DNA from: a virus
Taxonomy: Duplodnaviria > Heunggongvirae > Uroviricota > Caudoviricetes
Length of the DNA: 42,406 nucleotides
Direction: 5' to 3' (one strand)
IMG/VR virus record: IMGVR_UViG_2663762841_000006
Span: 1-42,406 of that record
The stretch's first letter is position 1. Each line of letters starts with the position of its first letter. This document shows positions 4,492-41,398 of the stretch, in pieces. Made by a program: the position numbers and the translations under genes. The notes beneath the pieces were generated by a model. That model was given only the letters and a program-made list of their open reading frames with translations, ran no database searches and was not told where the DNA came from.

Positions 4492-4971
4492 TTAAATTGC
4501 GTGAATAGCGTGACGAGGGAAGGGGAGAGTTACTGGTTCCTCGTCTGGGTAGATAGGTTTGTTATGTTTGTGCCACTCGACATGACATGACTTGCAGAGC
4601 CACATCACATCGGTTGGTTTGCTGTAGTCGCAGTGGTGCGCCTGTGGTTTACATTCTGATCCGCAGCACTCACATTGTGGTGGTCGGATTAGCTTACCGT
4701 CGCGCAAAAAATTACCCACAATGATGTGGGCTTTTCTTTTCCATGGGTTGCTCTGAATGAACCGCTTTTTGGCTGCGTTACACCGTTCTCTTCCGCGTTC
4801 CGATGATTGATATTCTCTCCTTGCTGATACTCGATGTGGCAATCCAGCGCGTTCTTTGTCGTATTCAGCCAGGCAAGCCCGGCAAGCGGCAGTTAATCCA
4901 TCTCTGGATGCTCTTCTGATTTGAAAGTCCCTTTCTTCCTTCTGTTGATGGCATCTTGAGCAGACTTTCAT
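4492..4971 (-). CDS. HNH endonuclease-like zinc-finger protein
   Basis: 159 aa; several CxxC pairs and HHCDYSKPTDVMWLCKSCHVEWH HNH-type motif. Confidence 0.6.
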   Translation of the reverse strand: MKVCSRCHQQKEERDFQIRRASRDGLTAACRACLAEYDKERAGLPHRVSARREYQSSERGRERCNAAKKRFIQSNPWKRKAHIIVGNFLRDGKLIRPPQCECCGSECKPQAHHCDYSKPTDVMWLCKSCHVEWHKHNKPIYPDEEPVTLPFPRHAIHAI

Positions 4972-4980
4972 ATTCAGCTC

Positions 4981-5454
4981 CTAGAACGGAATATCCGAAT
5001 CGTCGAAGTTCATAGGTGGTTCGCTGTGATTCCCCTGCTGCTGAGATTGCTGTCTTTGTTGCTGACCGTTATTTCGCTGATGTGAAGACTGTTCATTGCC
5101 TCCTTGTTTGCCACCAAGCATTTGCATGGTTCCACCAACGCCCACGATGACTTCGGTAGTGAACCGATCCTGTCCACTTTGATCCTGCCATTTTCTTGTC
5201 CGCAATTTGCCTTCAAGATAAACCTCAGAGCCTTTTCGCAGATATTCGCTGGCAATTTCTGCCAGTTTCCCGCTCATTACCACGCGGTGCCACTCCGTCT
5301 GCTCCTTTTGCTCTCCAGTTTGCTTATCACGCCATTGTTCTGACGTAGCAACTGTAAGGTTTGCAAATGCCGTTCCTGATGGTGAATATCTGATTTCTGG
5401 ATCATGCCCAAGGCGACCAATAATGATCACCTTATTTACGCCTCTGCTTGCCAT
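4981..5454 (-). CDS. ssb: single-stranded DNA-binding protein
   Basis: 157 aa; OB-fold N-terminus ([15 protein letters not shown]...), Gly/Gln-rich linker, acidic DDSDIPF C-terminal tail. Confidence 0.9.
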
Positions 5455-6162
5455 TTATGCCGCCTGTTTTAGTTCGTTAACTCTGATGTTCATTACCTGA
5501 ACGCATTTAGCCTGCGCATCCTCATTGCCAGCCATTAATTGCCAGTCATGCTGATAACGCTCGATGAGTTTTTTCTTGTCAGTTTCTTTCGATGCAAAAT
5601 CGCTGAAGTCTTTCAGGATTTGTTCGTAGTCAACCGATGGAGATTTCTGGTTGGTATTTTCTGGTGATGGTTTGTTATCTGATGCTGGGATTGCCCATCC
5701 CGGCAGCGATGGAGGGAGCCAGTAAAATCCTGTTCCATCCTTGAGTTTTGCCCTGTGCCATCCCTGCTTTTTATCGAGAGATGTTTGTGCAAAACCTTCC
5801 TCAAGGTTATACAGATACCGACCGATTCCCCACTGAACGGCAGCGCGCTTCATTGCACCGGAACGACCGCCTTTGACGGCTTCTACCTGCGTGTTTTCAG
5901 CAGCATCCCATTTGGTTACCCATTCGGAATCAATCTTGATTGATATGCCGCATTCAACTCCGCCGTTGTTGGGAATATCGCGGTATTCATTGCGCCATCC
6001 TGCTTTGCCGCAAACATCGTCCAGGCGCTTCATGATTGCCCGGTTCGTGACATAAGCCAGCACCATAGCCCACACCTTGCCATCGCGTGTTTTACCGCTT
6101 TGCTGTATTCGCCATTCGATATCTTCAGGGCTGAATGGCTCATCGAATTTGTTCAAATCCAT
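5455..6162 (-). CDS. single-strand annealing recombinase (Rad52/Sak-like family, inferred)
   Basis: 235 aa directly upstream of ssb in the recombination module; family recalled from memory, not verified by profile search. Confidence 0.5.
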   Translation of the reverse strand: MDLNKFDEPFSPEDIEWRIQQSGKTRDGKVWAMVLAYVTNRAIMKRLDDVCGKAGWRNEYRDIPNNGGVECGISIKIDSEWVTKWDAAENTQVEAVKGGRSGAMKRAAVQWGIGRYLYNLEEGFAQTSLDKKQGWHRAKLKDGTGFYWLPPSLPGWAIPASDNKPSPENTNQKSPSVDYEQILKDFSDFASKETDKKKLIERYQHDWQLMAGNEDAQAKCVQVMNIRVNELKQAA

Positions 6163-6261
6163 AATTCACCTCAGAATGGACACGGCCCAAGGAAATAACG
6201 CTGATTTAATACTTCGACTCGGGACAAATTAAGGCATACCCGCATTCCTTCGCGGTCACCA

Positions 6262-6420
6262 TTATGGCGATACCAGAGAGCTTTCTGCGTGTACATGCGT
6301 CTCTGTAACTTGCTCTCCTTCACTGTGGTTGCAAGTGACATGAATATCTCCTTCGTTACCGATTAATTCTTTCATCTGACGAATGAATTCTTCGTCTGAC
6401 CAGTTATCTGTAAAACTCAT
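6262..6420 (-). CDS. small hypothetical protein, 52 aa (below the ORF-track cutoff)
   Basis: Manual translation MSFTDNWSDEEFIRQMKELIGNEGDIH...; start overlaps the stop of the upstream Kil-like ORF (ATGA). Confidence 0.3.
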   Translation of the reverse strand: MSFTDNWSDEEFIRQMKELIGNEGDIHVTCNHSEGEQVTETHVHAESSLVSP

Positions 6421-6569
6421 TTCCTGCGATACCACGGAAGGTTGATAGCTGATTTCATAGCTTTATTTGCTTCAAGCCACATTTTTGAATCACCAATAAA
6501 TCTGGCTATTACTGCTTTGTTCTGTGCTGCACGAAGCATCTGGTGATTAATGGCTATTTCATTGCGCAT
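6417..6569 (-). CDS. Kil-like small protein (50 aa), putative host cell-division inhibitor
   Basis: Manual translation MRNEIAINHQMLRAAQNKAVIARFIGDSKMW...; IA(R/T)FIGD(S/E)KM(W/F) resembles lambda Kil as recalled; position between CIII-like gene and recombinase fits. Confidence 0.4.
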   Translation of the reverse strand: MRNEIAINHQMLRAAQNKAVIARFIGDSKMWLEANKAMKSAINLPWYRRK

Positions 6570-6688
6570 AACGCCTCCAGTTGTTTCTTTGCTGCTCTGA
6601 TTAATTGTTTAACTCGGCGTGATAATTCAGATTCGTGCGGGTAGAAAGCGGACATGACGCCGCTACCCGCGAGCTGAAAGTGCATCAT
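6554..6688 (-). CDS. CIII-like small protein (44 aa), putative FtsH inhibitor
   Basis: Manual translation MMHFQLAGSGVMSAFYPHESELSRRVKQLIRAAKKQLEAL; resembles lambda CIII central region (ESLLERITRKLR); AAGGAG RBS. Confidence 0.4.
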   Translation of the reverse strand: MMHFQLAGSGVMSAFYPHESELSRRVKQLIRAAKKQLEALCAMK

Positions 6689-6763
6689 GGGTAACTCCTT
6701 ATATTTGATTGCATAACGAAAACGCCTAGAGTGAAGCGTTATTGGTATGCGGTAAAGCCGCGC

Positions 6764-7075
6764 TTAGGCGGCTGATGTTTCTTCTTTCAGGCTTTCGAGA
6801 TATTTACGTGGGTCGTCGTAACATTGGCATTCGCTGTACCAATCCACCCAGCGATCAGTAAGCCCCATCTCTGATAAATCTTCATCGGTAAGGCTCTCAT
6901 CCCACATCTCAAGGCCGTTAGCATTGCAGTAATCAGGCTTGATGTTGTTGTCATACTGAAAGGCGTCATAATCAGCCAGTGCGTCCATCAGGCGAACACC
7001 CTCTTCAACACTTGCCACTTCTGCAATGAACGGTTTCATAGGTACTTGCGGGATATGCCAGACACGTAATTTCAT
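6764..7075 (-). CDS. highly acidic 103-aa early protein, function unknown
   Basis: GGAGG RBS before ATG at 7075 (track start 7129 rejected); about 23 Asp/Glu versus 9 Lys/Arg. Confidence 0.5.
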   Translation of the reverse strand: MKLRVWHIPQVPMKPFIAEVASVEEGVRLMDALADYDAFQYDNNIKPDYCNANGLEMWDESLTDEDLSEMGLTDRWVDWYSECQCYDDPRKYLESLKEETSAA

Positions 7076-7176
7076 ATTTCCTCCGTCAAAAAAATTGCCC
7101 TCACACTGGAGGGCAAAGAAGATTTCCAATAATCAGAACAAGTCGGCTCCTGTTTAGTTACGAGCGACATTGCTCC

Positions 7177-7204
7177 GTGTATTCACTCGTTGGAATGAAT
7201 ACAC
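7177..7204 (-). promoter_or_regulatory. perfect 9-bp inverted repeat (gtgtattca/tgaatacac) with 10-nt loop, no U-run
   Basis: Seen directly; lies just downstream of the 156-aa gene on the PL transcript; possible rho-dependent or N-sensitive terminator, processing site or protein-binding site. Confidence 0.3.
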
Positions 7205-7218
7205 AGTGCTTACTCGTA

Positions 7219-7689
7219 CTAATAAAATACCCAATTTTCTGTTTCTTGGTTGTGCCCAAAGTTATATTCAATATCTGGTGTTGATGTATCAATATTCTTC
7301 ATCCCATCAACAAGAGTTGATACAACAGCCAAATCTTGTTTGATTCTCATTAAATGGTATTTCTTCCGGCGCAATAAACTTTCAATGGCAAGTTTCTTCG
7401 TTGGGAATGCAAAAGATCTTTCTGCATTTTTTGCTACTTTCTTAATTGCATATCTATTTCTCCTTTGTTTCCATTCCTGTAACCACTGATTTGGTGCTGG
7501 TTTAAAATTAACAATCCAATGCGCAGGAACCAACCATGCATAATGCTCTGTCTGATGAAAAGCTATATATTGAAGTGCGAATATTTTTATCCCATCTTCT
7601 TCAACTGTCGCCTGGAATCTCCAGAAAACAGGCATTCCATCATGTTCAGTTTCTGATTCAGGAAAAGGTACGCTCCATGATTTTGTCAT
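7219..7689 (-). CDS. AT-rich moron protein, 156 aa, unknown function, immediately downstream of N
   Basis: GAGGTGA RBS; coding sequence is visibly AT-rich (A/T-ending codons throughout) relative to neighbours; basic region KQRRNRYAIKKVAK...LLRRKKYHLMRIK. Confidence 0.55.
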   Translation of the reverse strand: MTKSWSVPFPESETEHDGMPVFWRFQATVEEDGIKIFALQYIAFHQTEHYAWLVPAHWIVNFKPAPNQWLQEWKQRRNRYAIKKVAKNAERSFAFPTKKLAIESLLRRKKYHLMRIKQDLAVVSTLVDGMKNIDTSTPDIEYNFGHNQETENWVFY

Positions 7690-7697
7690 ATCTCACC

Positions 7698-7997
7698 TCA
7701 AATAAGTGGTTTGCTGCCTAATTTCATTTTCTGGCGACCAACACAAGTCACACCCATTTCACTGCGTGGCTTGCGGTAGTAAATACGGTTCTGTTTACGC
7801 TCGACTTCATCTGCCTTCTTGCAGCGAAGGCTTACGAGTGATGCTGCTTTGTCTGCTCTGACGCAACCAGAGAGCTTTAGCGCAATCTTTCGCGCCAGTC
7901 GCTGTTCTTGCATTGCCTGTTCACGTTGAGCCTGTCTGCGTGCTCTGCGGCGATTTCTGGCGTTATCGTCAGCCAGATATGTAATGACTACTGTCAT
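7698..7997 (-). CDS. N-like transcription antitermination protein
   Basis: 99 aa; arginine-rich motif NARNRRRARRQAQREQ near N-terminus; GGAGG RBS; first gene downstream of PL/nutL. Confidence 0.6.
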   Translation of the reverse strand: MTVVITYLADDNARNRRRARRQAQREQAMQEQRLARKIALKLSGCVRADKAASLVSLRCKKADEVERKQNRIYYRKPRSEMGVTCVGRQKMKLGSKPLI

Positions 7998-8192
7998 GTT
8001 GACCTCCGATGATTGACTTTGGTGATTGGATGGCCGGTGCTGAATTCCGGCTTACTGGTTAGAGCGCCCGCACTACCAGTGACGCTGTCTTGAGGCGCAG
8101 ATTGGTTACTGCTTGCCATGAGCGCTGTTTATACATTGGTCGAGCATCAGCCTGCTCATTCATCCAATCCCAAAGCCAACTACTCTTTGGTT

Positions 8193-8232
8193 CCCGCATT
8201 TCGGCGGGACAATCCCATCAATGTTAAAGAGC
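8193..8232 (-). promoter_or_regulatory. nutL (boxA ggctctttaa; boxB cccgccgaaatgcggg)
   Basis: boxA close to CGCTCTTTA consensus; boxB hairpin identical to the one at 9350..9365 (nutR) in the opposite orientation. Confidence 0.6.
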
Positions 8233-8278
8233 CTGCCAATCTATTCCGTTTGGCTACCAGCGTCCTGCTGATGGCTTA

Positions 8279-8308
8279 AATTTAAGATCTCTTTAATTAA
8301 TGGTCAAG
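8279..8308 (-). promoter_or_regulatory. PL promoter (-35 TTGACC, -10 TAAATT/TTAAAT) with TTAAG-containing operator-like palindromes
   Basis: Read on minus strand; 17-18 bp spacing; sits between cI terminator and nutL. Confidence 0.45.
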
Positions 8309-8374
8309 AATATTTTTGAAGAAAACTTAAATTTTCTTTCGTGACTTAAGTTTGGCTTTGATTTTTAAAGGAAA

Positions 8375-8398
8375 TAAAAAAAAAGGGGCGAATGCCCC
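8375..8398 (-). terminator. rho-independent terminator downstream of repressor gene
   Basis: Hairpin ggggc-gaat-gcccc followed on minus strand by a long U-run (plus-strand A10). Confidence 0.7.
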
Positions 8399-8399
8399 C

Positions 8400-9050
8400 T
8401 TATGGAAGGTTTGCTAGTTTTGCATCGACAACTACGCCGATGATTTTGCAGTTTCCGTTGATCTCGATCATCGGATATTGTGGGTTAAGTGGTTTTAGAA
8501 ACTTCCTGCCTGCATCAATAACTAACTTCTTGAAAGTTGCCTCGTTTTCTCCTTCGAGCTTTGCAACTACCAGTTTCCCGTTACGCGGCTCTACTTCAGG
8601 ATCGACGAGTATTATCATTCCTTCAGGGATACTGAGACCGGCCGGAGCCGTCATTGAGTCTCCCTTCACGTCCAACCAAAACGAATCTTCTGAACAGTCT
8701 ACGGTTGTATCGTACCAGTTATCTATTGCACGCTTATGATATGGTTCTACAGCTTCCATCCAGCATCCTGCGCTCACCCAGCTAATCAGAGGGTATGACC
8801 CTCTTGGATCATGCCTACTGTGATAGGCAATGTTTGAAAGACTTTCCTCTCCTTTCATCAGATAGTCAGGGGAACACTTCAACGCATTAGCCAGGGCGAG
8901 AAGATTCTCTCCATTTGGCTCTGTCTCAGAGCGTTCCCACTGAGATATGGCAACATTAGACACGCCGACCATCTTTCCAAGTGCGGCCTGCCTGATCTTG
9001 AGTTCTTTTCTCCGAGCGCGAATGCGCTCTCCCATCAATTGAGTTTTCAT
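8400..9050 (-). CDS. c2: CI/C2-type prophage repressor (HTH + LexA-like S24 peptidase domain), P22 C2-like
   Basis: 216 aa; N-terminal HTH (QAALGKMVGVSNVAISQWER), C-terminal autocleavage domain (AG, GDSM, K motif); appears near-identical to the P22 C2 sequence as I recall it. Confidence 0.9.
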   Translation of the reverse strand: MKTQLMGERIRARRKELKIRQAALGKMVGVSNVAISQWERSETEPNGENLLALANALKCSPDYLMKGEESLSNIAYHSRHDPRGSYPLISWVSAGCWMEAVEPYHKRAIDNWYDTTVDCSEDSFWLDVKGDSMTAPAGLSIPEGMIILVDPEVEPRNGKLVVAKLEGENEATFKKLVIDAGRKFLKPLNPQYPMIEINGNCKIIGVVVDAKLANLP

Positions 9051-9053
9051 AGT

Positions 9054-9117
9054 TAAGACATCTTAAATAAACTTGACTTAAGATTCCTTTGGTGGATAAT
9101 TTAAGTGTTCTTTAATT
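9054..9117 (+). promoter_or_regulatory. OR/PR region: PR (-35 TTGACT 9074..9079, -10 GATAAT 9096..9101) with P22-type operators (ttaagacatcttaa; atttaagtgttctttaat)
   Basis: Promoter hexamers and imperfect palindromes read directly; operator sequence resembles P22 OR as recalled. Confidence 0.6.
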
Positions 9118-9130
9118 TCGGAGCGAGTCT

Positions 9131-9316
9131 ATGTACAAGAAAGATGTTATCGACCACTTCGGAACCCAGCGTGCTGTCGCTAAAGCGTTAGGCATTAGCG
9201 ACGCAGCAGTCTCTCAGTGGAAGGAAGTCATCCCAGAGAAAGACGCCTATCGACTGGAAGTCGTTACAGCTGGCGCCCTGAAGTATCAAGAAAGCGCTTA
9301 CCGCAAAGCGGCATAA
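9131..9316 (+). CDS. cro: Cro repressor (P22-type)
   Basis: 61 aa HTH protein (QRAVAKALGISDAAVSQW) transcribed divergently from the repressor gene. Confidence 0.85.
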   Translation: MYKKDVIDHFGTQRAVAKALGISDAAVSQWKEVIPEKDAYRLEVVTAGALKYQESAYRKAA

Positions 9317-9323
9317 GCAAATT

Positions 9324-9365
9324 GCTCTTTAACAGTCATGGTCCTCATTCCCGCCGAAATGCGGG
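9324..9365 (+). promoter_or_regulatory. nutR (boxA gctctttaa; boxB cccgccgaaatgcggg)
   Basis: Same boxA/boxB pair as nutL, here on the plus strand between cro and the CII-like gene. Confidence 0.6.
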
Positions 9366-9424
9366 AATACAACGCACATAAGTTGATGCGTATAACTTCT
9401 TATTTGTTAAGGAAATACTTACAT

Positions 9425-9703
9425 ATGCAACTTACAAGTACTCGCAAGAAAGCGAATGCAATTACAAGCAACATCCTGAATCGAATTGCTGTACGTGGTC
9501 AGCGAAAGGTTGCTGATGCATTAGGGATTAATGAATCGCAAATTTCGCGATGGAAAGACAGCTTCATCCCAAAAATGGGAATGCTTCTGGCTGTTCTTGA
9601 ATGGGGTGTTGAAGACGAGGAGTTGGCGGAACTGGCTAAGAAAGTAGCCAGAATGCTGACAAAAGAAAAAGCCCCGAAGAACGGCGAATTCTTCGAGGCC
9701 TGA
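9425..9703 (+). CDS. cII: CII-like transcriptional activator
   Basis: 92 aa from ATG with AAGGA RBS; LLAVLEWGV and ESQISRWK motifs match lambda CII as recalled; track start 9338 rejected. Confidence 0.75.
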   Translation: MQLTSTRKKANAITSNILNRIAVRGQRKVADALGINESQISRWKDSFIPKMGMLLAVLEWGVEDEELAELAKKVARMLTKEKAPKNGEFFEA

Positions 9704-9737
9704 TGTAGAAAGACTGGATCAATCCACAGGAGTAATT

Positions 9738-9899
9738 ATGACAAAACGTCGTAAGAAATACCAGGAAAAAGAAGAGATTCGACACCCTGATTCACCTGAG
9801 GGATTAGTGGTAGCCGCAGCAAATAACAGGGCGTTCGCAGAGCGCCTTGTTGGTGTTTACAGACTAGCCAAAGCAGGAGTGAAACATGGGCGTCGTTAA
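9738..9899 (+). CDS. small basic hypothetical protein, 53 aa
   Basis: Manual translation MTKRRKKYQEKEEIRHPDSPEGLVVAAANNRAFAERLVGVYRLAKAGVKHGRR; CAGGAG RBS. Confidence 0.35.
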   Translation: MTKRRKKYQEKEEIRHPDSPEGLVVAAANNRAFAERLVGVYRLAKAGVKHGRR

Positions 9900-9948
9900 G
9901 TTAGCTGATTACAGGCATAACCCTGTACAACATCAGGAGGCATCCAGT

Positions 9949-10776
9949 ATGGGGTATGTCTCTATACACCGCCAGTTTATGGACAGCAGGCTCTATAAGG
10001 ACTCTCAGGCAGTACATCTTTGGCTTCACTTAATCCTCAAGGCTAATCACGAATCTACTGTCGTCAATACGGATATCGGTCCGATAACTGTTGATCGCGG
10101 TCAGATGATAACTGGACGCCCGTCGCTGGTCAGAGAAACATTCATTCCCGACAACAAAGTTCGGAGCTTATTACGGACTTTTGAGTCGAAAGGGATGCTT
10201 AATATTTGCTCGATGGGGAAGAAATTTAGCCTGTTTACAATCGTTAAATATGACGATTTTCAGGCAAAAAATTGTCCAACGGTTGTCCAACGGTTGTCCA
10301 ACGCAAACACCAGTAATGGCGCGGCTCTCAGTGGAGATTGTCCAACGGTTGTCCAACGGTTGTCCATAAACAATAATATAAATAATATCTCTAATACTGA
10401 CGTATTAGAGAGTGCCACAGCAGACAAAAAGTCTGACAAGAAAAAACCTTCCGTTAGCTGTCAGGATGTTGTCGATGCTTACCACGAAATCCTTCCTGAA
10501 GCGCCAAGAATCCGCGCACTGAATGACAAGCGTAAAAACCAGATCCGAACGTTCTGGCGCAAAGCCGGAGTGATAACCCGCCAGCTTGACGGACATGGGT
10601 TCACGATGCAGGACTGGAGAAATTATTTGAGCTACGTAGGCGAAAATTGTCGATGGATGTTCGAAGAGCGTCCAAACCATCAACGTGGAACTGTCTGGCA
10701 CAAAAAGGGATTTGATTTCCTGCTTAACGATAATACCTACCTGAAAGTTCGTGAGGGTGAACACGATGACCGATAA
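9949..10776 (+). CDS. replication initiator (lambda O / P22 gene 18 analog) containing the origin iterons
   Basis: AGGAGG RBS before ATG 9949; six 11-bp iterons inside the gene; immediately followed by the helicase gene. Confidence 0.65.
   Translation: MGYVSIHRQFMDSRLYKDSQAVHLWLHLILKANHESTVVNTDIGPITVDRGQMITGRPSLVRETFIPDNKVRSLLRTFESKGMLNICSMGKKFSLFTIVKYDDFQAKNCPTVVQRLSNANTSNGAALSGDCPTVVQRLSINNNINNISNTDVLESATADKKSDKKKPSVSCQDVVDAYHEILPEAPRIRALNDKRKNQIRTFWRKAGVITRQLDGHGFTMQDWRNYLSYVGENCRWMFEERPNHQRGTVWHKKGFDFLLNDNTYLKVREGEHDDR
10272..10400. repeat. replication origin: six iterons TTGTCCAACGG (10272..10304 and 10338..10370) followed by an AT-rich stretch (10368..10400)
   Basis: Exact tandem repeats seen directly; in-frame, encoding the repeated peptide CPTVVQRLS. 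Confidence 0.75.
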
Positions 10777-12202
10777 TTTTTATGCGCCGCCCCATAGCAT
10801 CGAGGCAGAGCAGGCGGTGATTGGTGGATTGCTTCTGGATGATGACAGCAGTGAGCGCGTCCAGAAAGTTCTGGCGATGCTGAAGCCTGATTCATTTTAC
10901 AGCCGACCACACAAAATCCTTTTCGAAGAAATAACCAGAATGCACCGGGAGCAAAAGCCAGTAGATGGCCTGACGCTTTTCGATGAACTTGAGCGTAAAT
11001 CGTTAACGGCGTCTGTTGGAGGTTTTGCTTATATCGCTGAGATCGCAAAGAACACGCCAAGTGCAGCAAACATCGTTGCCTATGCAATGCAGGTTCGTGA
11101 AACCGCAATGGAACGCTACGCCATCAACCGCATGACTGAAGCGACGGAATTGCTCTATTCCCGCAACGGAATGACTGCAACGCAGAAGTACGAAGCTATT
11201 CAGGCGATTTTCACGCAACTGACAGACCATGCAAAAACCGGATCGCGTCGTGGCCTTCGCTCATTTGGTGAGGTCATGGAAGACTGGGTTAGCGACCTTG
11301 AGAAGCGATTTGACCCGTCAGGCGAACAGCGAGGAATGAGCACAGGGATCCCATCGCTGGACAGGATGCTGTCACCGAAAGGTCTGGTGAAAGGCTCTCT
11401 GTTTGTCATTGGCGCTCGCCCTAAGATGGGGAAAACGACGCTATACAGCCAGATGGCAATCAACTGCGCAGTGCATGAGAAAAAGCCCGCTCTGATGTTC
11501 AGCCTTGAAATGCCAGGCGACCAGATACTGGAAAAACTGGTAGGACAGAAGTCAGGTGTTAACCCGAATATTTTTTACCTTCCGGCGACAAATGACGCTG
11601 ATGACGGCTATCAGGGTGATTACGATGGTGACTTCAACAGGGCGATCGAAACAGCCAATCGCTTGAGTGAAATCGACCTGCTTTACATCGACGACACGCC
11701 GGGATTATCTCTGGCTCAAATCGTCAGCGAAAGCCGTCGAATCAAGCGAGAAAAAGGATGTGTTGGCATGATTCTGGTCGATTACCTGACACTAATGACC
11801 GCTGAGAAGGCCGATCGCAACGACCTTGCTTACGGCATGATCACCAAAGGACTGAAGAACCTTGCCAAAGAGCTTGATTGCGTTGTTGTGCTTCTGACAC
11901 AGCTTAACCGCGCACTGGAAAGCCGAACCAATAAACGCCCATTACCAAGTGACTCACGAGATACAGGGCAGATTGAACAGGATTGCGATTATTGGGTGGG
12001 GATCCATCGTGAAGGCGCTTTTGATGACAGCGTTCCTCCTGGTGAAACCGAACTAATCCTTCGCCTCAATCGTCATGGCAATACCGGCACGGTGTATTGC
12101 ATTCAGGCAAATGGCGCTATTTATGACACAGACCAACAGTCTGCTGAAATGCGCCGCCGTGAACGCGAGGAACCGCAGTCCAAGAAGAAAGGAGGATTCT
12201 GA
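10766..12202 (+). CDS. replicative DNA helicase, DnaB family (P22 gene 12 analog)
   Basis: Walker A GARPKMGKT, DnaB N-terminal motif SIEAEQAVIGGLL; GAGGG RBS before ATG 10766. Confidence 0.85.
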   Translation: MTDNFYAPPHSIEAEQAVIGGLLLDDDSSERVQKVLAMLKPDSFYSRPHKILFEEITRMHREQKPVDGLTLFDELERKSLTASVGGFAYIAEIAKNTPSAANIVAYAMQVRETAMERYAINRMTEATELLYSRNGMTATQKYEAIQAIFTQLTDHAKTGSRRGLRSFGEVMEDWVSDLEKRFDPSGEQRGMSTGIPSLDRMLSPKGLVKGSLFVIGARPKMGKTTLYSQMAINCAVHEKKPALMFSLEMPGDQILEKLVGQKSGVNPNIFYLPATNDADDGYQGDYDGDFNRAIETANRLSEIDLLYIDDTPGLSLAQIVSESRRIKREKGCVGMILVDYLTLMTAEKADRNDLAYGMITKGLKNLAKELDCVVVLLTQLNRALESRTNKRPLPSDSRDTGQIEQDCDYWVGIHREGAFDDSVPPGETELILRLNRHGNTGTVYCIQANGAIYDTDQQSAEMRRREREEPQSKKKGGF

Positions 12203-12277
12203 TGACCATCTACATCACTGAGCTAATAACAGGCCTGCTGGTAATCGCAGGCCTTTTTATTTGGGGGAGAGGGAAGT

Positions 12278-12604
12278 GTGGCTGACTGGCAAATTCCAAT
12301 CATCATTCTTGCCGGAGCTTCGCTGGTTGCTGGCTTTATCCTGCTGAAAAAGCATAAAGACCGTGATCAAAAAGTCGAAGTTCTCTATGGGTATCCAGCG
12401 AACAGCACAACATGGCTGACCATTTACCACTACCGAAAATCAGGCCGCTGGGTATTCGAATGGGATGATCTGTTTGCTGAAAAGCGACCAAAGTCATGGG
12501 GAGACATCAGCGAATGCATGATGTTTGAAGAAAGAAAATCCGGCGCAACCCGAGAAGAGTTTAACGAAGCGTGGGCGCGATTAAGTGAGAGAGGGTATTT
12601 GTGA
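12278..12604 (+). CDS. hypothetical membrane-anchored protein, 108 aa (ren-slot gene)
   Basis: GTG start with GGGAGAGGG RBS; N-terminal hydrophobic helix IPIIILAGASLVAGFILL. Confidence 0.45.
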   Translation: MADWQIPIIILAGASLVAGFILLKKHKDRDQKVEVLYGYPANSTTWLTIYHYRKSGRWVFEWDDLFAEKRPKSWGDISECMMFEERKSGATREEFNEAWARLSERGYL

Positions 12605-12801
12605 GCAAGTACGAAAAATTAGATCAAAACATTCTTTCAATGCTGAGTGAAAGACCAACACCTGTTTTTGATATCTGGCTTAAATGGCGGAGCAATGGAA
12701 TGTATATCGAAACCATCGATCGCCGTATGCAATACCTGAGAAAGAAAGGGCTTGTTGCAAATGTGCGTGGGAAGGGTTGGGTGAAAATTAACCTGTCATA
12801 A
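12601..12801 (+). CDS. hypothetical protein, 66 aa
   Basis: GTG start overlapping the upstream stop; no recognised motif. Confidence 0.35.
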   Translation: MSKYEKLDQNILSMLSERPTPVFDIWLKWRSNGMYIETIDRRMQYLRKKGLVANVRGKGWVKINLS

Positions 12802-12812
12802 CGGGGATTGAT

Positions 12813-13079
12813 ATGGACGAATCAAGAAAGCAGTTTGAAGAATGGTTTAAAAACAAATATCACGTTTCAAGTGACGTGATGAAGATTATGCACATCAAGG
12901 TCGAGATTGCATGGGAGGCATGGCAGGCATCGCGAGCAGCTATTGAAATTGAGCTGCAAAAGCCAAAGAAAGGCCCACTTCCCGGTGATTATCACATTGG
13001 CTATGACTCAGGTGCAGAATCACAATACGAAAGCGATGTAGAGGCCATCCGCGCGGCTGGAGTTAAAGTGAAGGAGTGA
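12813..13079 (+). CDS. hypothetical protein, 88 aa
   Basis: ORF with ATG start; no recognised motif. Confidence 0.4.
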   Translation: MDESRKQFEEWFKNKYHVSSDVMKIMHIKVEIAWEAWQASRAAIEIELQKPKKGPLPGDYHIGYDSGAESQYESDVEAIRAAGVKVKE

Positions 13080-13081
13080 GT

Positions 13082-13288
13082 ATGACAAATCAGCAGCAAA
13101 TAGAGTTCATCCTTGAGCAGATCAGAAAAATGCGAGAAAAGAACCAGCCAGACATGATGGAAATATGGAGACGCCAGCAGGAAGAATACCGCAAGCATAT
13201 TTTTGGTGAGAGAAAACAGGATGACTGGAGCCTATATGGCTATGGCACCAGGACAAATAAAAACGGATATAGCCTTTACACATATTGA
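13082..13288 (+). CDS. hypothetical protein, 69 aa
   Basis: AAGGAG RBS 5 nt before ATG 13082. Confidence 0.4.
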   Translation: MTNQQQIEFILEQIRKMREKNQPDMMEIWRRQQEEYRKHIFGERKQDDWSLYGYGTRTNKNGYSLYTY

Positions 13289-13296
13289 GGAATTCC

Positions 13297-13707
13297 ATGA
13301 AACAGACAATTTTCCTCAGGAGTAAGCAACAACAGCAAGCCGCAATCAACGCCATCCTCGCAACACCACTCGATAAAGACAAGCCAGTTACCATCCGCAT
13401 TACTGACTACAAGCGCAACCTTGACCAGAACGCAAAATTTCACGCGATGCTGGCGGATATCGCAAGTCAGGTTCAATGGTGCGGCAAATGGTTAAAACCA
13501 GAACAGTGGAAGGTTTTGTTGATTAGCGGTCATGCAGTGGCAACAAAACAGGAAGCTGATGTTTTGCGCGGCCTTGAAGGCGAATTCGTCAACATTCGCG
13601 AAAGCAGCGCGCAGATGAGTGTGAAGCGTATGGCAAGTCTGATCGAGTACACAACAGCCTGGGCTATTGGTCAGGGTGTCAGATTTACCGACAGGAGGTA
13701 CGAATGA
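13297..13707 (+). CDS. ninB: NinB (recombination protein, lambda NinB/Orf family)
   Basis: GAGGA RBS; RNLDQN and WCGKWL motifs match lambda NinB as recalled. Confidence 0.8.
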
Positions 13708-13880
13708 GACGACAGCGACGAAGTATCACCGACATAATCTGCGAAAACTGCAAATACCTTCCAACGAAGCGCTCCAGAAACAAACGCAAGCCAATCCCAA
13801 AAGAATCTGACGTAAAAACCTTCAATTATACGGCTCACCTGTGGGATATCCGGTGGCTAAGACATCGTGCGAGGAAATGA
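13704..13880 (+). CDS. ninD: NinD-like small protein, 58 aa
   Basis: Manual translation [32 protein letters not shown]...; AGGAGG RBS; ATGA overlap with ninB stop; identity to lambda NinD recalled but not verified. Confidence 0.45.
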
Positions 13881-13882
13881 CG

Positions 13883-14827
13883 ATGACTGCGTATTACAAC
13901 GAAATAGATCCGTATGCAGCGCAATGGCTGCGTAACTTAATTGACGCTGGAGAAATTGCCCCCGGTTATGTAGATGAAAGGAGTATTGAAGATGTCACAC
14001 CAGGTGATTTGCGAGGATTTACCCAGCACCACTTTTTTGCAGGAATCGGAGTTTGGAGCTATGCACTTAGAAAAGCAGGATGGCCAGACAACAAGAGTAT
14101 CTGGACAGGAAGTTGCCCATGCCAACCTTTCAGCTCGGCAGGCAAAGGAAAAGGGGTTGATGACGAGCGGCACTTATGGCCGGCATTCTTCTGGCTTATT
14201 GAAAAATGCAATCCTGGCATCGTTATTGGCGAACAGGTTGCAAGCGCAGACGGCCTCGCTTGGCTCGACCTTGTACAAACTGACTTGGAAGGTGCGAACT
14301 ACACCTCTGCAGGTACCGATATTTGCGCTGCGGGCTTCGGTTCTCCGCACATCAGGCAGCGATTGTATTGGGTGGCCTACTCCAACGACAAATATCAACT
14401 TTCAGCCAGAGACACGCAGGGGAATTCAGAACCTATCTGGATGCGTGAGACTAGCGGGATGGCAAACTCCTTTAGCGAACGATGCAACAGGTTCAACGCA
14501 TTGCTACAGCGGAAAAGACAAGAGCGGAACCCCAAGAATCTGCTTGAAACTTCCCGGGACGGTGAAGCTATGTACCCATTACCGGTTAACGGCTTCTGGA
14601 GAGATGCAGACTGGCTTTACTGTAGAGATGAAAAATATCGTCCAGTTAGACCCGGCTCATTCCCGATGGTTAATGGCATTGCCAAAAGCTTGGGACGAGG
14701 CAAGTCCACACTGGGAAGAATGGCAAAGCGCAATCAAGATCAGCGAATTATTGGATATGGAAACGCAATCAATGCAGAAGTAGCAACGGCATTCGTGAAA
14801 GTTTGTATGGAGGTTGTTAATGCTTAG
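13883..14827 (+). CDS. DNA (cytosine-5)-methyltransferase, orphan (no cognate nuclease gene seen)
   Basis: Motif I FFAGIG, motif IV PCQPFSSAG, motif VI-like GEQV, motif VIII QRLYWVAY, motif X GNAI; start chosen at second ATG for RBS spacing. Confidence 0.75.
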   Translation: MTAYYNEIDPYAAQWLRNLIDAGEIAPGYVDERSIEDVTPGDLRGFTQHHFFAGIGVWSYALRKAGWPDNKSIWTGSCPCQPFSSAGKGKGVDDERHLWPAFFWLIEKCNPGIVIGEQVASADGLAWLDLVQTDLEGANYTSAGTDICAAGFGSPHIRQRLYWVAYSNDKYQLSARDTQGNSEPIWMRETSGMANSFSERCNRFNALLQRKRQERNPKNLLETSRDGEAMYPLPVNGFWRDADWLYCRDEKYRPVRPGSFPMVNGIAKSLGRGKSTLGRMAKRNQDQRIIGYGNAINAEVATAFVKVCMEVVNA

Positions 14828-14996
14828 CCCATCCCAATCCCTTCAATACCAGAAAGAAAGCGTCGAGCGAGCTTTAACGTGCGCTAACTGCGGTCAGAAG
14901 CTGCATGTGCTGGAAGTTCACGTGTGTGAGCACTGCTGCGCAGAACTGATGAGCGATCCGAATAGCTCAATGTACGAGGAAGAAGACGATGGCTAA
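14814..14996 (+). CDS. ninF: NinF
   Basis: 60 aa; CANCGQ...CEHCC zinc-binding motifs; sequence matches lambda NinF as recalled. Confidence 0.75.
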
Positions 14997-15600
14997 ACCA
15001 GCACGAAGACGATGTAAAAACGGTGAATGTCGGGAATGGTTTCACCCTGCATTCGCTAATCAGTGGTGGTGCTCTCCAGAGTGTGGAACAAAGATAGCAC
15101 TCGAACGACGAAGCAAAGAACGCGAAAAAGCGGAAAAAGCAGCAGAGAAGAAACTACGACGAGAGGAGCAGAAACAGAAAGATAAACTGAAGATTCGAAA
15201 ACTCGCCTTAAAGCCCCGCAGTTACTGGATTAAACAAGCCCAACAAGCCGTAAACGCCTTCATCAGAGAAAGAGACCGCGACTTACCATGTATCTCGTGC
15301 GGAACGCTCACGTCTGCTCAGTGGGATGCCGGACATTACCGGACAACTGCTGCGGCACCTCAACTCCGATTTGATGAACGCAATATTCACAAGCAATGCG
15401 TGGTGTGCAACCAGCACAAAAGCGGAAATCTCGTTCCGTATCGCGTCGAACTGATTAGCCGTATCGGGCAGGAAGCAGTAGACGAAATCGAATCAAACCA
15501 TAACCGCCATCGCTGGACTATCGAAGAGTGCAAGGCGATCAAGGCAGAGTACCAACAGAAACTCAAAGACCTGCGAAATAGCAGAAGTGAGGCCGCATGA
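14989..15600 (+). CDS. ninG: NinG/Rap recombination-promoting nuclease
   Basis: 203 aa with Cys-rich N- and central regions; matches lambda NinG as recalled. Confidence 0.8.
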
Positions 15601-15803
15601 CGTTCTCAGTAAAAACCATTCCAGACATGCTCGTTGAAGCATACGGAAACCAGACAGAAGTAGCACGCAGACTGAAATGTAGTCGCGGTACGGTCAGAAA
15701 ATACGTTGATGATAAAGACGGGAAAATGCACGCCATCGTCAACGACGTTCTTATGGTTCATCGCGGATGGAGTGAAAGAGATGCGCTATTACGAAAAAAT
15801 TGA
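15597..15803 (+). CDS. ninH: NinH
   Basis: 68 aa; HTH-like [18 protein letters not shown]; matches lambda NinH as recalled. Confidence 0.8.
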
Positions 15804-16446
15804 TGGCAGCAAATACCGAAATATTTGGGTAGTTGGCGACCTGCACGGATGCTACACGAACCTGATGAACAAACTGGATACGATTGGATTCGACACCCAA
15901 AAAGACCTGCTTATCTCGGTTGGCGATTTGGTCGATCGCGGTGCAGAGAACGTCGAATGCCTGGAATTAATCACATTCCCCTGGTTCAGAGCTGTACGTG
16001 GAAACCATGAGCAAATGATGATTGATGGCTTATCAGAGCGTGGAAACGTCAATCACTGGCTGTTTAATGGCGGTGGCTGGTTCTTTAATCTCGATTACGA
16101 CAAAGAAATTCTGGCTAAAGCTCTTGCCCATAAAGCAGATGAACTTCCGTTAATCATCGAACTGGTGAGCAAAGGTAAAAAATATGTCATCTGCCACGCC
16201 GATTATCCTTGTGATAAATACGAGTTTGGAAAGCCAGTTGATCATCAGCAGGTAATCTGGAACCGCGAACGAATCAGCAACTCACAAGACGGGTTCGTGA
16301 AAGAAATCAAAGGCGCGGACACGTTCATCTTTGGTCATACGCCAGCAGTGAAACCACTCAAGTTTGCCAACCAGATGTATATCGATACCGGCGCAGTGTT
16401 CTGCGGAAACCTCACATTGATTCAGGTACAGGGAGAAGGCGCATGA
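15781..16446 (+). CDS. ninI: Ser/Thr protein phosphatase NinI (lambda PPase)
   Basis: Metallophosphatase motifs GDLHG, GDLVDRG, GNHE; start at MRYYEK, so track start 15706 rejected. Confidence 0.9.
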
Positions 16447-36803: not shown

Positions 36804-36821
36804 CAGATAACCAACGCAACG

Positions 36822-36846
36822 ACCCAGCTTCGGCTGGGTTTTTTTA
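36822..36846 (+). terminator. rho-independent terminator after ant
   Basis: acccagc-ttcg-gctgggt followed by T7. Confidence 0.75.
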
Positions 36847-36913
36847 TGCCCAAAATTCACCGTAGCCATGCTGCGGGGATTCATTGTATCTGGAGCAAAT
36901 TAAATGACAGACA

Positions 36914-37408
36914 TTATCTAAAACAAGCAAACTCGCCATGATATTTTTCCCTGAATGCAATAGACATTAATTCGGCCAGCTCAATATCATCGGTATACCC
37001 AAGGCAAATAGACTTACCTTTTAGTTTGAACATAACTTTATATGTGTTTTTCCCTTTAAGAAGATGAACTCCTTTTATACCTGTATTGGATGATGAAACG
37101 CTGTTGGTTTTATTCTGACCTCTGGTTACTTCTCTTAGGTTTGAAATTCTATTGTCATTTTTAACCCCGTTAATATGGTCAATTAACCCTTTAGGCCAGC
37201 ATCCTTTCATATAAAACCAAGCAAGTCGGTGGCAAAGATATGATTTCCCATTAATCCGTATTGATAAGTAGTCGGCCTGTGAGTTCGTCTTAAATCCAGC
37301 AACCTTTCCGATACTGGAGCTACCAGAAGCTATCTTCCAAGTGAAGACGCCTGTTTCTGGGTTGTAGTTGAGTGAAGAGGTTAATTCTTTATGAGTAATC
37401 ATATTCAT
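36914..37408 (-). CDS. HNH homing-endonuclease-like protein (HNH_3 type)
   Basis: 164 aa; HRLAWFY...IDHINGVKNDNRISNLREVTRGQN motif; AT-rich; antisense to the flanking late genes. Confidence 0.65.
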   Translation of the reverse strand: MNMITHKELTSSLNYNPETGVFTWKIASGSSSIGKVAGFKTNSQADYLSIRINGKSYLCHRLAWFYMKGCWPKGLIDHINGVKNDNRISNLREVTRGQNKTNSVSSSNTGIKGVHLLKGKNTYKVMFKLKGKSICLGYTDDIELAELMSIAFREKYHGEFACFR

Positions 37409-37428
37409 TCCTTAAATAGAGATTCACT

Positions 37429-39876
37429 ATGTCAAATATTGTGCCAAATGTTATAATTTCAATGCCAAGTCAACTATTTACGTTAGCCAGAAAATTCCAG
37501 GCAGCAAGCAATGGCAAGATATTCATTGGTAAGATAGATTCCGATCCCACGCTCCCACAGAATCAAGTGCAGGTTTATGTGGAGAACGAAGACGGCTCTC
37601 ACATTCCCGTTTCGCAACCAATAATTATTAACGCTGCTGGCTACCCTGTATATAACGGACAGATTGCCAAATTCGTAACCGTGCAAGGGCATTCTATGGC
37701 TGTGTACGATGCATATGGATCACAGCAGTTCTATTTCCCTAATGTGCTGAAGTACGATCCAGATCAGTTTTCATATTTGCTGAAAAGTGATGATGGCTAT
37801 AAGTATATAGGAGAATGCAAAGATATATCTACATTGAGAACAATTGAACCAAGTTATGATGGACAGGTTATAAGACTGAGGGGATATTACTCTGACAGCT
37901 ATTCAGGAGGTGGAAGGTTTTTCCGTAGTGTTAATCCTGATGGATTGACAGATAACGGAGGAACGATAATTTTCACATCAGAAGGAAATGTATGGAAATC
38001 AGATGATATATATAATGTTATGCTTGAGGATTTCGGAGCTAAAGATGGTGCTGACAACACCGAAGCATTTCATAAAGCAATTAACTCACCAGCAAAAAAA
38101 ATCACAACAAATATAAAAGAGTTGATACTAACAAACAATATTGTAATTACACGCGGCGACCTGGCAATTGATATGCCTGATACGGAGATAATATGGAATG
38201 CTCCGGAAGGACATATTCCTGATAGAAGTGGATCTACAAATCCAAGTAACTATCGTTTTCCTGGCATTCTAGCATTTCGCGGCACTGCTGGAGATATAAT
38301 AGACTCTTTTACTCTAACAAATAGAATATCAAAAGGAGATACAACATATTGGTGTACGAACAACTCTCTTTTTGAGAATAGACAGTGGGTTATTATGTCA
38401 TCGGATGTTGGCGGCGGAACCGTAGGTAGAGAAATAAATGTAATGACACAAGTGCAGGGCAGTGGTGGAGCAATAACTCAATTGCGAGTTGATTATAAAA
38501 CAGGCTGGCATCTTGATGTCGGAAGGGTATTGACATATAGAAATGTAACCCCAATAGAAAATGTAAGAATTGCTTTTAAAGGCGTAAAATGGAATCAAAA
38601 CATAACAGATGCTTCAGGTGGTGGCGATGGATTTGCCAGTCAACAATCATGCGCACTTGTGTCCCTTGAATACGTAAATAACGCTGACATTTGTCTCGGG
38701 TATGGATTTAATCACCCTTACCCAATGGTTGTAACTGCCATGGTCAGGAATGTTTTTGTTCATGATACGGAAACAAATTTCCCAAGAGTTCCAGGGTCCG
38801 ATCATGTTGTTCAATTCAATAACGCATATGAATGCCACGCAAGAAGATTACGCAATATTTCAGGCAGGCACGTAGTTGATTTTAGTGGTTCAAGTTATTG
38901 CTCTGTAAGAGATTGCGGAGAAACAGGAACAAGAAATGGTGCATTTACTACGCACGGTATGTTTGAGCACAATTTGCGATTTGATAATAATTATGGTCTT
39001 TTAAGCATTGCAAACAGTGGTGAATATTATGGTGAGTCAGCAGATAATATAACTGTAACCCATCATTTCGGAGATTATTTAATTGCAACTTCAAAAGTTA
39101 CCAACCTTAACATATTGCATGCAATATTTACAAAAGGTGCAAGATTAAACAATGATGCCGTCACATTGATTGATGTTACTATTGGAGAAAACTCAACTGA
39201 TGCCGATAGAGGGCTTAGATTTACCCAAAGCTCTAATGTTTATGGGCGTGGGGCAAAAATATTCGGCTGTGACATTGTGTTAAACAAGCAAGCAGGGAAT
39301 GCTCTGCCTGATTCTCTTAACCAAAGGGTGAAAATCGAATCGACATATATCAGGAATTCAAACGCTTCATATTATGGTGGTAGTTGGATTGAACTAATTA
39401 ATTGTGATGTTTCAGGATCAGGTTCAAGTCTTGAGAATGTTGTTGCTGCAACGCGGTTTAGCATGCTGTCCGGATCACTATCTAATACTGGTTTTATTTT
39501 TCAAGGCCCATCAGAGCAAATCGTAAAAATACATGACGTTTCACAGTCTGGAACAGGAGCGTCAGGGCTTAATAGTCATTTTACTTTAAATAAAGATGAG
39601 GCAGGAAGTGGACCAATAACAATGTCATATAAAAATAATCAATGTATATTGAGTGGAGAAACATGCGCATTCAAAATAAATAATGCTTCAGGAGCATTCA
39701 GAGTAAACTCTACAGGGAATACGTTTCAAGGTGGGAAAATAGAGTTTCAGAAATCTATTACATCAGGTGGCAGTTACTTAAATCACACTGGAAACGTAGA
39801 GCGTGGCGTTAGTAGAGTCAACGAGCCAGAAAATACTCCATATATAGTAACAACAGGGAATATGATAATTCCCTGA
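37429..39876 (+). CDS. tailspike protein: conserved P22-type head-binding N-terminal domain fused to a divergent receptor-binding domain
   Basis: 815 aa; first ~115 residues match the P22/Sf6/HK620 tailspike N-terminus as recalled; remainder Gly/Ser/Asn-rich, consistent with a beta-helix. Confidence 0.85.
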
Positions 39877-40004: not shown

Positions 40005-41198
40005 TTAATCAACCTTCCCATCAAGCCAGTCTGCCCACCACTGCATCATTTCTCTGCGTTTGTCGAGATACTGAGCATGGTTGTAAATTCCACGCACAGA
40101 ACCGCCGTTGGCATGTGCCAGTTGCACTTCAATAGCATCAGCGGGCCATTCGTGCTCGTTCATAATCGTGCTGAATTCATGCCTGAATCCGTGACCGCTT
40201 TCCAGACCCTCATAGCCGATTTGTTTGATCACAAGCAATACCGCGTTCTCGCAGATTGGCTTCTTCTTATCGTTGCGCCCGGCAAAAACAAACTCTGATA
40301 CTGGTTTGGTGATTGAGCTTAGCGTAGTGAGAAGTTCAACCACCTGGTCCGACATCGGGACCACATGAATTTTGCGGCCCTTCATCACACTGGCGTCGAT
40401 GGTGATAATCCTGTTTTCAAAATCGACGTTCTTCCATAGCATGGAACGAAGCTCTTTCGTTCTTAGGGCAGTGTAGCGTAAAACTTTGGTCGCAATGAGC
40501 GATACGATACTTCCTGAAAATGTTGCAAGTGCTTTGTTGAATGCCGGGATCTGGTCGGCAGGTAAAAACGGGAAGTTCTTCTTGCGGTATCCCTTCATGG
40601 CGTCAGCAAGGTCAGGTGCCGGGTTATATTTAGCCCTACCAGTGACAATAGCGTAACGGAAAACCTCGCCGCATCTTCTGCGGGCTTTGTTGGCTCGCTC
40701 CATTGCACCGCGATCTTCAAATCTGCGGATTACTTCCAGCAGTTGCATCGGCTCAATATCCTGAATTTCAAGGCCGCCGATGATAGGTAAAATGTCGTCA
40801 TCAAACATTTTTGCAAGTTCATTTGCATAGCCTACTGACCAGACTTGCTTCTTGTGCTCGTACCATTCCTTGTAAATGGCGCTAAAGGAATTGTTGTTAG
40901 ACGAAGCCTTTTTCGCTTTTACCGGATCGATGCCAACCGAGATGTCTTTCCTCGCGGTCCATGCTTTATCCCTTGCCTCCTGCAAAGTCATAAGCGGATA
41001 TTTTCCGACGGTCAGGATTTTCTCCTTACCGTCAATCTTGTAGCGAAGCTGCCATACCTTTTTCCCTGATACAGGGACATAAAGGTACAGGCCATTACCA
41101 TCGAGTAGGCGGTATGGTTTTTCTTTCGGCTTTGCTGCTTCAATCTGCTTAACGGTGAGCATGGGTAAAAATCCGGTGGGTAAAATTATTTTATCCAC
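40005..41198 (-). CDS. intS: tyrosine integrase, IntS (CPS-53/KpLE1)-like, P4-type
   Basis: 397 aa; C-terminal catalytic region (HGFRHEFST...HA...RGIYNHAQY); adjacent to argW; true start may be ATG at 41162 (MLTVKQIE). Confidence 0.85.
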   Translation of the reverse strand: MDKIILPTGFLPMLTVKQIEAAKPKEKPYRLLDGNGLYLYVPVSGKKVWQLRYKIDGKEKILTVGKYPLMTLQEARDKAWTARKDISVGIDPVKAKKASSNNNSFSAIYKEWYEHKKQVWSVGYANELAKMFDDDILPIIGGLEIQDIEPMQLLEVIRRFEDRGAMERANKARRRCGEVFRYAIVTGRAKYNPAPDLADAMKGYRKKNFPFLPADQIPAFNKALATFSGSIVSLIATKVLRYTALRTKELRSMLWKNVDFENRIITIDASVMKGRKIHVVPMSDQVVELLTTLSSITKPVSEFVFAGRNDKKKPICENAVLLVIKQIGYEGLESGHGFRHEFSTIMNEHEWPADAIEVQLAHANGGSVRGIYNHAQYLDKRREMMQWWADWLDGKVD

Positions 41199-41323: not shown

Positions 41324-41398
41324 TGGTGTCCCCTGCAGGAATCGAACCTGCAATTAGCCCTTAGGAGGGGCTCGTTATATCCATTTAACTAAGAGGAC
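41324..41398 (-). tRNA. argW: tRNA-Arg (anticodon CCU), intact; 3' end forms the prophage att core
   Basis: 75-nt cloverleaf read from the reverse complement, ending GGGGACACCA; anticodon loop cuCCUaa. Confidence 0.9.

Follow-up and report, generated by a model that had tools for sequence, protein, structure and literature searches.

Exchange of receptor domains between tailspikes is textbook phage biology. The tailspike gene described here raises the question of which glycan of the host surface its receptor domain recognises, and what it does to that glycan. The gene is found in the IMG/VR virus record IMGVR_UViG_2663762841_000006 (Caudoviricetes), whose 42,406 nucleotides are called the window from here on. 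It lies at 37429..39876 on the plus strand, and is an intact, ATG-started open reading frame that encodes 815 residues. A P22-like (Lederbergvirus) prophage of approximately 40 kb lies complete within the window, and its virion genes are 96–97% identical to those of N7, HK620 and Sf6. The product is best regarded as the three-part mosaic tailspike of an argW-integrated prophage of Escherichia coli of the sequence type 410 (ST410) type, and as a probable endoglycosidase whose candidate receptor is a surface glycan encoded by a Wzx/Wzy cluster between galF and gnd.

Domain layout of the tailspike

The N-terminal part of the protein, residues 1–113 (37429..37767, plus strand), is a P22-type head-binding domain, i.e., the anchor to the virion. 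PF09008 (Head_binding) is the sole Pfam match in the spike and is covered over its full model by these residues (E 3.8e-64). In a phmmer search of PDB sequences, Sf6 gp14 aligns over residues 1–115 (E 2.7e-59) and the P22 tailspike (gp9) over residues 1–186, strongly only to about residue 115. When the spike was compared by tblastn with 50,697 phage records, its N-terminus showed 70–85% identity with spikes from Sf6, HK620, N7, CUS-3, Sf101 and others, with matches ending at residues 114–147; for P22, Sf6, HK620 and CUS-3 this identity covers residues 1–114. The original prediction, made from the DNA letters alone, that only the first ~115 residues resemble the P22, Sf6 and HK620 tailspikes is borne out by these limits.

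The anchor is followed by a joint at residues 114–117 (…DPDQ/FSYL…; 37768..37779, plus strand), where identity breaks in two comparisons. In E. coli strain 124, the spike encoded at this locus has 83% identity over residues 1–118 and no relation beyond, and from this break at about residue 118 the joint was placed at ...KYDPDQ(F/L)S. In turn, similarity to the extra tailspike ESCO8_00245 (UPW37474.1) of the 149-kb myovirus ESCO8 (vB_EcoM_ESCO8, Justusliebigvirus) starts at residue 118 of the spike of the window.

Beyond the joint, residues 118–218 (37780..38082, plus strand) form a neck of the PF27114 'Phage_tail_beta' type. Among PDB sequences it matches tailspike protein 2 (TSP2) of phage CBA120 (5w6p, 6w4q; E ~3e-12) and Pantoea WceF (6tgf); the PF27114 label is precomputed for the neck of the relatives of this spike. 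The neck is the only segment common to several otherwise different spikes, and the distant relatives P0015–P0019 match over this segment alone. The remaining residues, 219–815 (38083..39873, plus strand), comprise a right-handed parallel β-helix and a C-terminal β domain, which are the putative depolymerase and receptor-binding part. The receptor part has a G+C content of 38.0% (26% at third codon positions) versus 47.2% for the remaining prophage, in agreement with the predicted AT-richness, and every 2,100-nt segment outside it in the prophage is richer in G+C, with a minimum of 41.2%.

The spike shares with those of P22, Sf6, HK620 and CUS-3 the plan of anchor, linker and β-helix, as well as the location of the gene after ant and the immI region and before int. 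In contrast to these four, it carries the neck of the CBA120 TSP2/WceF type between the anchor and the helix, and has no detectable sequence similarity to their endorhamnosidase, endo-N-acetylglucosaminidase and endosialidase modules. For P22 gp9 (residues ~125–666), the homology expected of a GH90 enzyme was not found, given that the phmmer alignment ends at residue 186 and is weak past residue 115. The remainder of the protein was thus correctly predicted to be unrelated in sequence to the P22 endorhamnosidase; the general β-helix fold is nonetheless shared.

Mobility and distribution of the receptor module

The block that extends from residue 118 to residue 815 recurs in the ESCO8 tailspike with 69.7% identity over 697 residues (118–814). 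Unlike the spike of the window, that of ESCO8 has a myovirus-type anchor of 47 residues, and the 30% divergence could alter its specificity. Relatives with 61–70% identity sit behind at least three other N-terminal anchors, i.e., variants of PF18668 (Tail_spike_N), the 'MSSGCGDVLSLADL…' type and the ESCO8 anchor, in other contigs and in siphovirus-like prophages that carry tape-measure, NlpC/P60 and tail-assembly-chaperone genes upstream. In strain 124 (NZ_CP048344.1), argW is likewise occupied by a P22-like prophage, whose spike joins a closely related head-binding domain to a wholly different receptor domain. The occurrence of the module in ESCO8 and behind the other anchors, together with the strain 124 anchor joined to a different receptor domain, supports the module swapping that had been proposed for this gene. 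The block is a cassette exchanged by horizontal transfer. Its AT-rich composition is foreign to the prophage, and a myovirus and siphovirus-like prophages have it in common.

An identical protein is present in NCBI (WP_060504049.1 / KSW83630.1) with the annotation 'phage head-binding domain-containing protein', and belongs to a 90%-identity cluster of 180 sequences that are 97–100% conserved. In all likelihood, it is also the K71-77_Prophage_RBP of Pas et al. 2023 (PMC10408124), whose Table S1 of receptor-binding proteins (RBPs) puts it together with ESCO8_RBP in subtype X8 and assigns no serogroup. E. coli K71-77 is an NDM-1 isolate that belongs to ST410 and phylogroup A (PMC7283256). Members of an RBP subtype have at least 30% amino acid identity over the receptor domain, and the identity to ESCO8 UPW37474.1 given above places the spike in X8. 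The mosaic type itself is well known, and both NCBI and a published table already contain the exact protein. No characterised tailspike with full-length identity was found, and the protein is catalogued only within a subtype that has no serogroup.

An exhaustive HMMER search with residues 219–815 against 1.84 billion representative proteins gave 121 matches with E < 1e-3, 14 of them with E < 1e-30. Neither Pfam, PHROGs and the PDB sequences nor a 29-member family profile run against PDB gave a match past residue ~257. The relatives include proteins from Klebsiella pneumoniae with 62–63% identity. One of these (P0007, 62%; JAMRPH010000017.1), encoded in a siphovirus-like prophage, is directly followed by a gtrA/gtrB/gtrC-like module (11272–13999) with the domains GtrA_DPMS_TM, Glycos_transf_2 and Glucos_trans_II. 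In P22, the gtr module for O-antigen seroconversion adjoins gene 9, and the gtr-like genes beside the Klebsiella relative point to a glycan linked to lipopolysaccharide (LPS) as the receptor class. The module is reasonably predicted to have a glycan specificity (O antigen or capsule) different from that of P22.

Candidate receptor glycan

Megablast detected the receptor domain in 14 of 5,426 complete E. coli genomes, with every copy at least 99% identical. When more distant alleles (~70% identity) were sought by blastn in the same genomes, the same 14 were recovered and nothing further. These nearly identical domains occur in at least four prophage backgrounds. In the ST410 strain 1EC187, the prophage is a strongly deleted remnant at argW. 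Those of MS10495 and the fox isolate LR882493 are both largely complete, and the positions of neighbouring genes suggest that the latter lies elsewhere in the chromosome. The prophage of 2020CK-00188 is partly deleted, and its immI region is a different one. This last prophage (4927–16170) retains genes for the spike, ejection proteins, needle and gp10, followed directly by replication and immunity genes; those for the head, the portal, the terminase and lysis are deleted, and the arc/ant immI region of the window is absent. As published, 1EC187 and WCHEC025943 belong to ST410, and 1EC187 is O8:H9.

Two polysaccharide loci are enriched in these lysogens. A Wzx/Wzy cluster located between galF and gnd, with wzy, wzx, a hypothetical gene, a GT4 glycosyltransferase gene, pssD and pssE, was detected in 13 lysogens out of 14 versus 66 of the 5,426 genomes (1.2%; hypergeometric P 5e-25). 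For the O8 mannan locus (wzm/wzt), the figures are 12/14 versus 301/5,426 (5.5%; P 6e-14), a count in which four near-identical CUVET19 genomes were scored from one checked genome. O8 wzt was also detected in strain IAI1. In strain 2020CK-00188, the Wzx/Wzy cluster is represented by diverged alleles (98.1% identity for wzy) and the O8 locus is missing, with hisIE abutting wzzB. It was tentatively concluded that the receptor is the Wzx/Wzy glycan specified by the galF–gnd region of ST410-type strains. This glycan is favoured over the O8 mannan because it is the tighter correlate, and because 2020CK-00188 has the cluster without O8.

Several observations weigh against this assignment. Most of the lysogens belong to one clone, ST410, so that both P-values are inflated, fewer of the observations being independent than they imply. 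Neither glycan locus is present in the horse isolate SWYH.B349aT, which has an O125-type cluster with a frameshifted wzx; its gnd, his and wca alleles also differ, which is compatible with replacement of the O locus after lysogeny. In addition, the isolation host of ESCO8 is O78, and subtype X8 was left without a serogroup by Pas et al. 2023 (PMC10408124). The ESCO8 host was dropped as a guide to specificity, considering that ESCO8 has several spikes, that its module is only 70% identical and that the subtype was given no serogroup in that study.

The main alternative, that the receptor is the O8 polymannan O antigen and the spike an endo-α-mannosidase, is less likely, even though the frequency of the O8 locus in the lysogens and the published serotype of 1EC187 speak for it. 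It also fits the presence of relatives with 62–63% identity in K. pneumoniae, whose O5 antigen is structurally the same as the E. coli O8 polymannan; moreover, the coliphage Omega8 was reportedly described in the 1970s to have endo-α-mannosidase activity. Nevertheless, the wzy cluster correlates more tightly with the spike, and both 2020CK-00188 and the horse isolate lack the O8 locus, which rules out that all lysogens are O8. In several lysogens, manC within the O8 cluster is a pseudogene, with an internal stop in A2, CUVET19-1937, CUVET21-147 and NRZ100214. In MS10495 and CUVET21-147, a group II intron (ltrA) lies between rfbK and wzm. The expression of the O8 mannan may be altered in these ST410 strains.

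The receptor domain is also unrelated to those already associated with O8. O8 specificity was shown experimentally for AV101 TSP1 (PMC10791037) and was predicted for the subtype formed by G7C gp66, MK-13 RBP1 and the 90-1 prophage (Pas et al. 2023, PMC10408124); both kinds of domain occur in phages or prophages of the same O8/ST410-type hosts. BLASTP of the receptor domain against G7C gp66 and AV101 TSP1-4 gave no significant match, so its identity with a published O8 receptor domain was excluded. The wholly different receptor domain of strain 124 is of this gp66 type (68% identity to G7C gp66 over 603 residues), and sits behind the 83%-identical head-binding domain at the argW locus. In that strain the gp66-like spike is followed at once by a prophage-encoded polymerase of the WzyE family (L007, 3869–7413). 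A phage Wzy cannot alter the O8 mannan, which is made by an ABC transporter pathway, and for this reason the 'O8' subtype of gp66 may really target the Wzx/Wzy glycan. Strain 90-1, which defines the gp66 subtype in the work of Pas et al., carries the galF–gnd wzy cluster too.

Fold, conserved core and putative chemistry

The receptor part shares the β-helix fold of GH28/pectate-lyase-like enzymes. Its nearest structures are the Klebsiella K1 lyase (7w1c), Pseudomonas phi297 gp61 and LKA1 gp49, Acinetobacter AP22 gp54 and GH28 polygalacturonases, with identities of only 11–16%. The Foldseek TM-scores against PDB are at most 0.38, and a catalytic motif common to these proteins and the spike was not established. 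A Pfam scan of the spike gave no match to PF00295, PF12708 or PF13229. The most conserved core, a candidate active site, comprises residues 480–576 (38866..39156, plus strand), as defined by the conserved columns of 29 family members, and contains the best-matching segments of the exhaustive HMMER search. Its columns are R480, H481, D484, Y490, H509, G510, E513, H514, A528, S530, G531, H546, N574 and D576. Across the 29 members, which are 18–72% identical, G365, H509, G510, E513, G523, A528, S530 and G535 are invariant, and the nearly invariant residues include R480, H481, D484, H514, H546, N574 and D576. Strict conservation of Y490 is confined to the close homologues, although Tyr is the majority residue at this position in the 29-member consensus.

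The signature of GH28 enzymes consists of the motifs NTD, DD, G/SHG and RIK, whereas lyases have acidic residues at a Ca site and an Arg or Lys base. Judged by eye from the alignment, the pattern D484 ... T-H509-G ... E513-H514 loosely recalls the DD and HG motifs. D484 and E513 are candidates for an acid/base pair; they are 29 positions apart, presumably on neighbouring turns of the helix, with conserved His and Arg residues alongside. This spacing of about one helix turn resembles that of the Asp/Glu pairs of HK620 (D339/E372) and Sf6 (E366/D399).

The module is more probably a hydrolase than a lyase, and only a small share of the weight is left for the readings in which it merely binds or is a relic. 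Most O-antigen spikes are hydrolases, and the leaning towards this chemistry rests on that fact and on a receptor class that appears LPS-linked, considering the gtr context in Klebsiella and the lack of a capsule association. On the other hand, the top structural neighbours, i.e., the K1 lyase, LKA1 gp49 and AP22 gp54, are lyases and not hydrolases, with a similarity (11–15% identity) too low to discriminate between the chemistries. A polysaccharide lyase acting by β-elimination on a glycan with uronic acid, in which R480, Y490 and H509 would serve as base and neutraliser, is conceivable, though less probable. It is improbable that the spike only binds the glycan, or modifies it as a deacetylase might (cf. 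G7C gp63.1), and leaves the chain uncut: Pfam, PHROGs and the PDB profile detected no catalytic motif of a known enzyme family in the spike, as this would predict, but the long β-helix has a conserved polar core (H509, E513, D484, H481, H514), maintained at 18–72% identity, that is typical of an active site, and the Pfam scan detected no SGNH or esterase domain. Least probable is that the gene is a decaying relic without present function. Many ST410 genomes do hold the spike in a heavily deleted prophage remnant; nevertheless, the reading frame is full-length even within the remnants, it is intact here in a complete prophage, and the cluster of 180 sequences is almost uniformly conserved.

The remnant of 1EC187 (NZ_CP061108.1; L002, 1–8305) is cut down to torI, eag, a fragment of ant, the spike and intS, and its spike reading frame of 816 residues is intact. 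One thought is that the spike of such remnants may trim glycans on the host side, as does Pantoea WceF (which matches residues 8–211).

Proposed mode of action

To our knowledge, every characterised spike of this architecture supports the analogy in docking, trimer formation and cleavage on which the following proposal is modelled. Residues 1–113 would plug the spike into the tail hub, and residues 118–218 would act as the neck common to many spikes. The spike would trimerise, and residues 219–815 would bind the polysaccharide of the host surface along the β-helix and most likely cleave its chain. Cleavage of the glycan would then allow the virion to descend to the outer membrane.

Prophage context and a second joint within the anchor

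The gene has the placement of a P22-type tailspike, at the end of the virion module, after the immI region and adjoining int and the attachment site; the PF09008 and PDB matches of its anchor and the C-terminal right-handed parallel β-helix are likewise those of a P22-type spike. Upstream are the genes of the immI region, i.e., Arc-like genes and ant (Bro-N and P22_AR_C domains), and a terminator-like hairpin (36821..36846, plus strand) lies between ant and the tailspike gene, at a site whose equivalent is annotated as 'terminator' in HK620, epsilon34 and Emek. The IntS integrase gene (40005..41198, minus strand) is directly downstream of the spike, and no O-antigen-modifying gene was found in the interval between them. 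The attachment site is the tRNA-Arg(CCT) gene argW (41324..41398, minus strand), next to which is the host gene yfdC. A perfect hairpin with an 8-bp stem, at 39854–39875, overlaps the final codons and the stop of the spike gene; on the minus strand, it is a terminator-like site downstream of intS.

Between the immI region and the spike, an HNH endonuclease gene (36914..37408, minus strand; PF13392, E 4e-15; phrog_99, E 1e-60) with a G+C content of 36.8% occupies the ancestral start of the tailspike gene. Strain 1EC187 does not have this gene at the equivalent position. Alignment with that strain revealed a relic of the ancestral start, ATGACAGA (M-T-D...), at 36905..36912 on the plus strand, and the new start of the spike (MSNIVPN…) comes after the HNH insert. 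The first 47 residues (37429..37569, plus strand) are a divergent segment of the head-binding allele, since all 14 E. coli genomes that share the receptor domain align only from nucleotides 133–144 of the spike gene, and the alignment with 1EC187 picks up again at approximately position 37570 of the window. These alignments place a second joint inside the head-binding domain, with residues 1–47 derived from another allele and inherited together with the HNH cassette. The region 36905–37569 looks like a co-conversion tract of a homing endonuclease. In phage Kapi1, a 42%-identical HNH gene is found at the same spot, and the N-terminus of the spike has also been rebuilt.

Significance of the receptor family

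The receptor module represents a rare β-helix receptor family without a characterised member, and its copies in E. coli are tightly linked to ST410, an international carbapenem-resistant high-risk clone. It is possible, though somewhat short of probable, that the module founds a depolymerase family of its own, and that its E. coli member targets a second glycan, the Wzx/Wzy product encoded between galF and gnd instead of the O8 mannan, in ST410 and a few other lineages. If this is true, strains typed as 'O8' would display two glycans relevant to phages, and in-silico 'O8' typing would hide the second phage receptor; likewise, published assignments of RBPs to 'O8' from host co-occurrence would be confounded in part. 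In that case, the spike would serve to probe carbapenem-resistant ST410 specifically, to type it or to depolymerise its glycan, and would offer engineered pyocins or phages a targeting domain.

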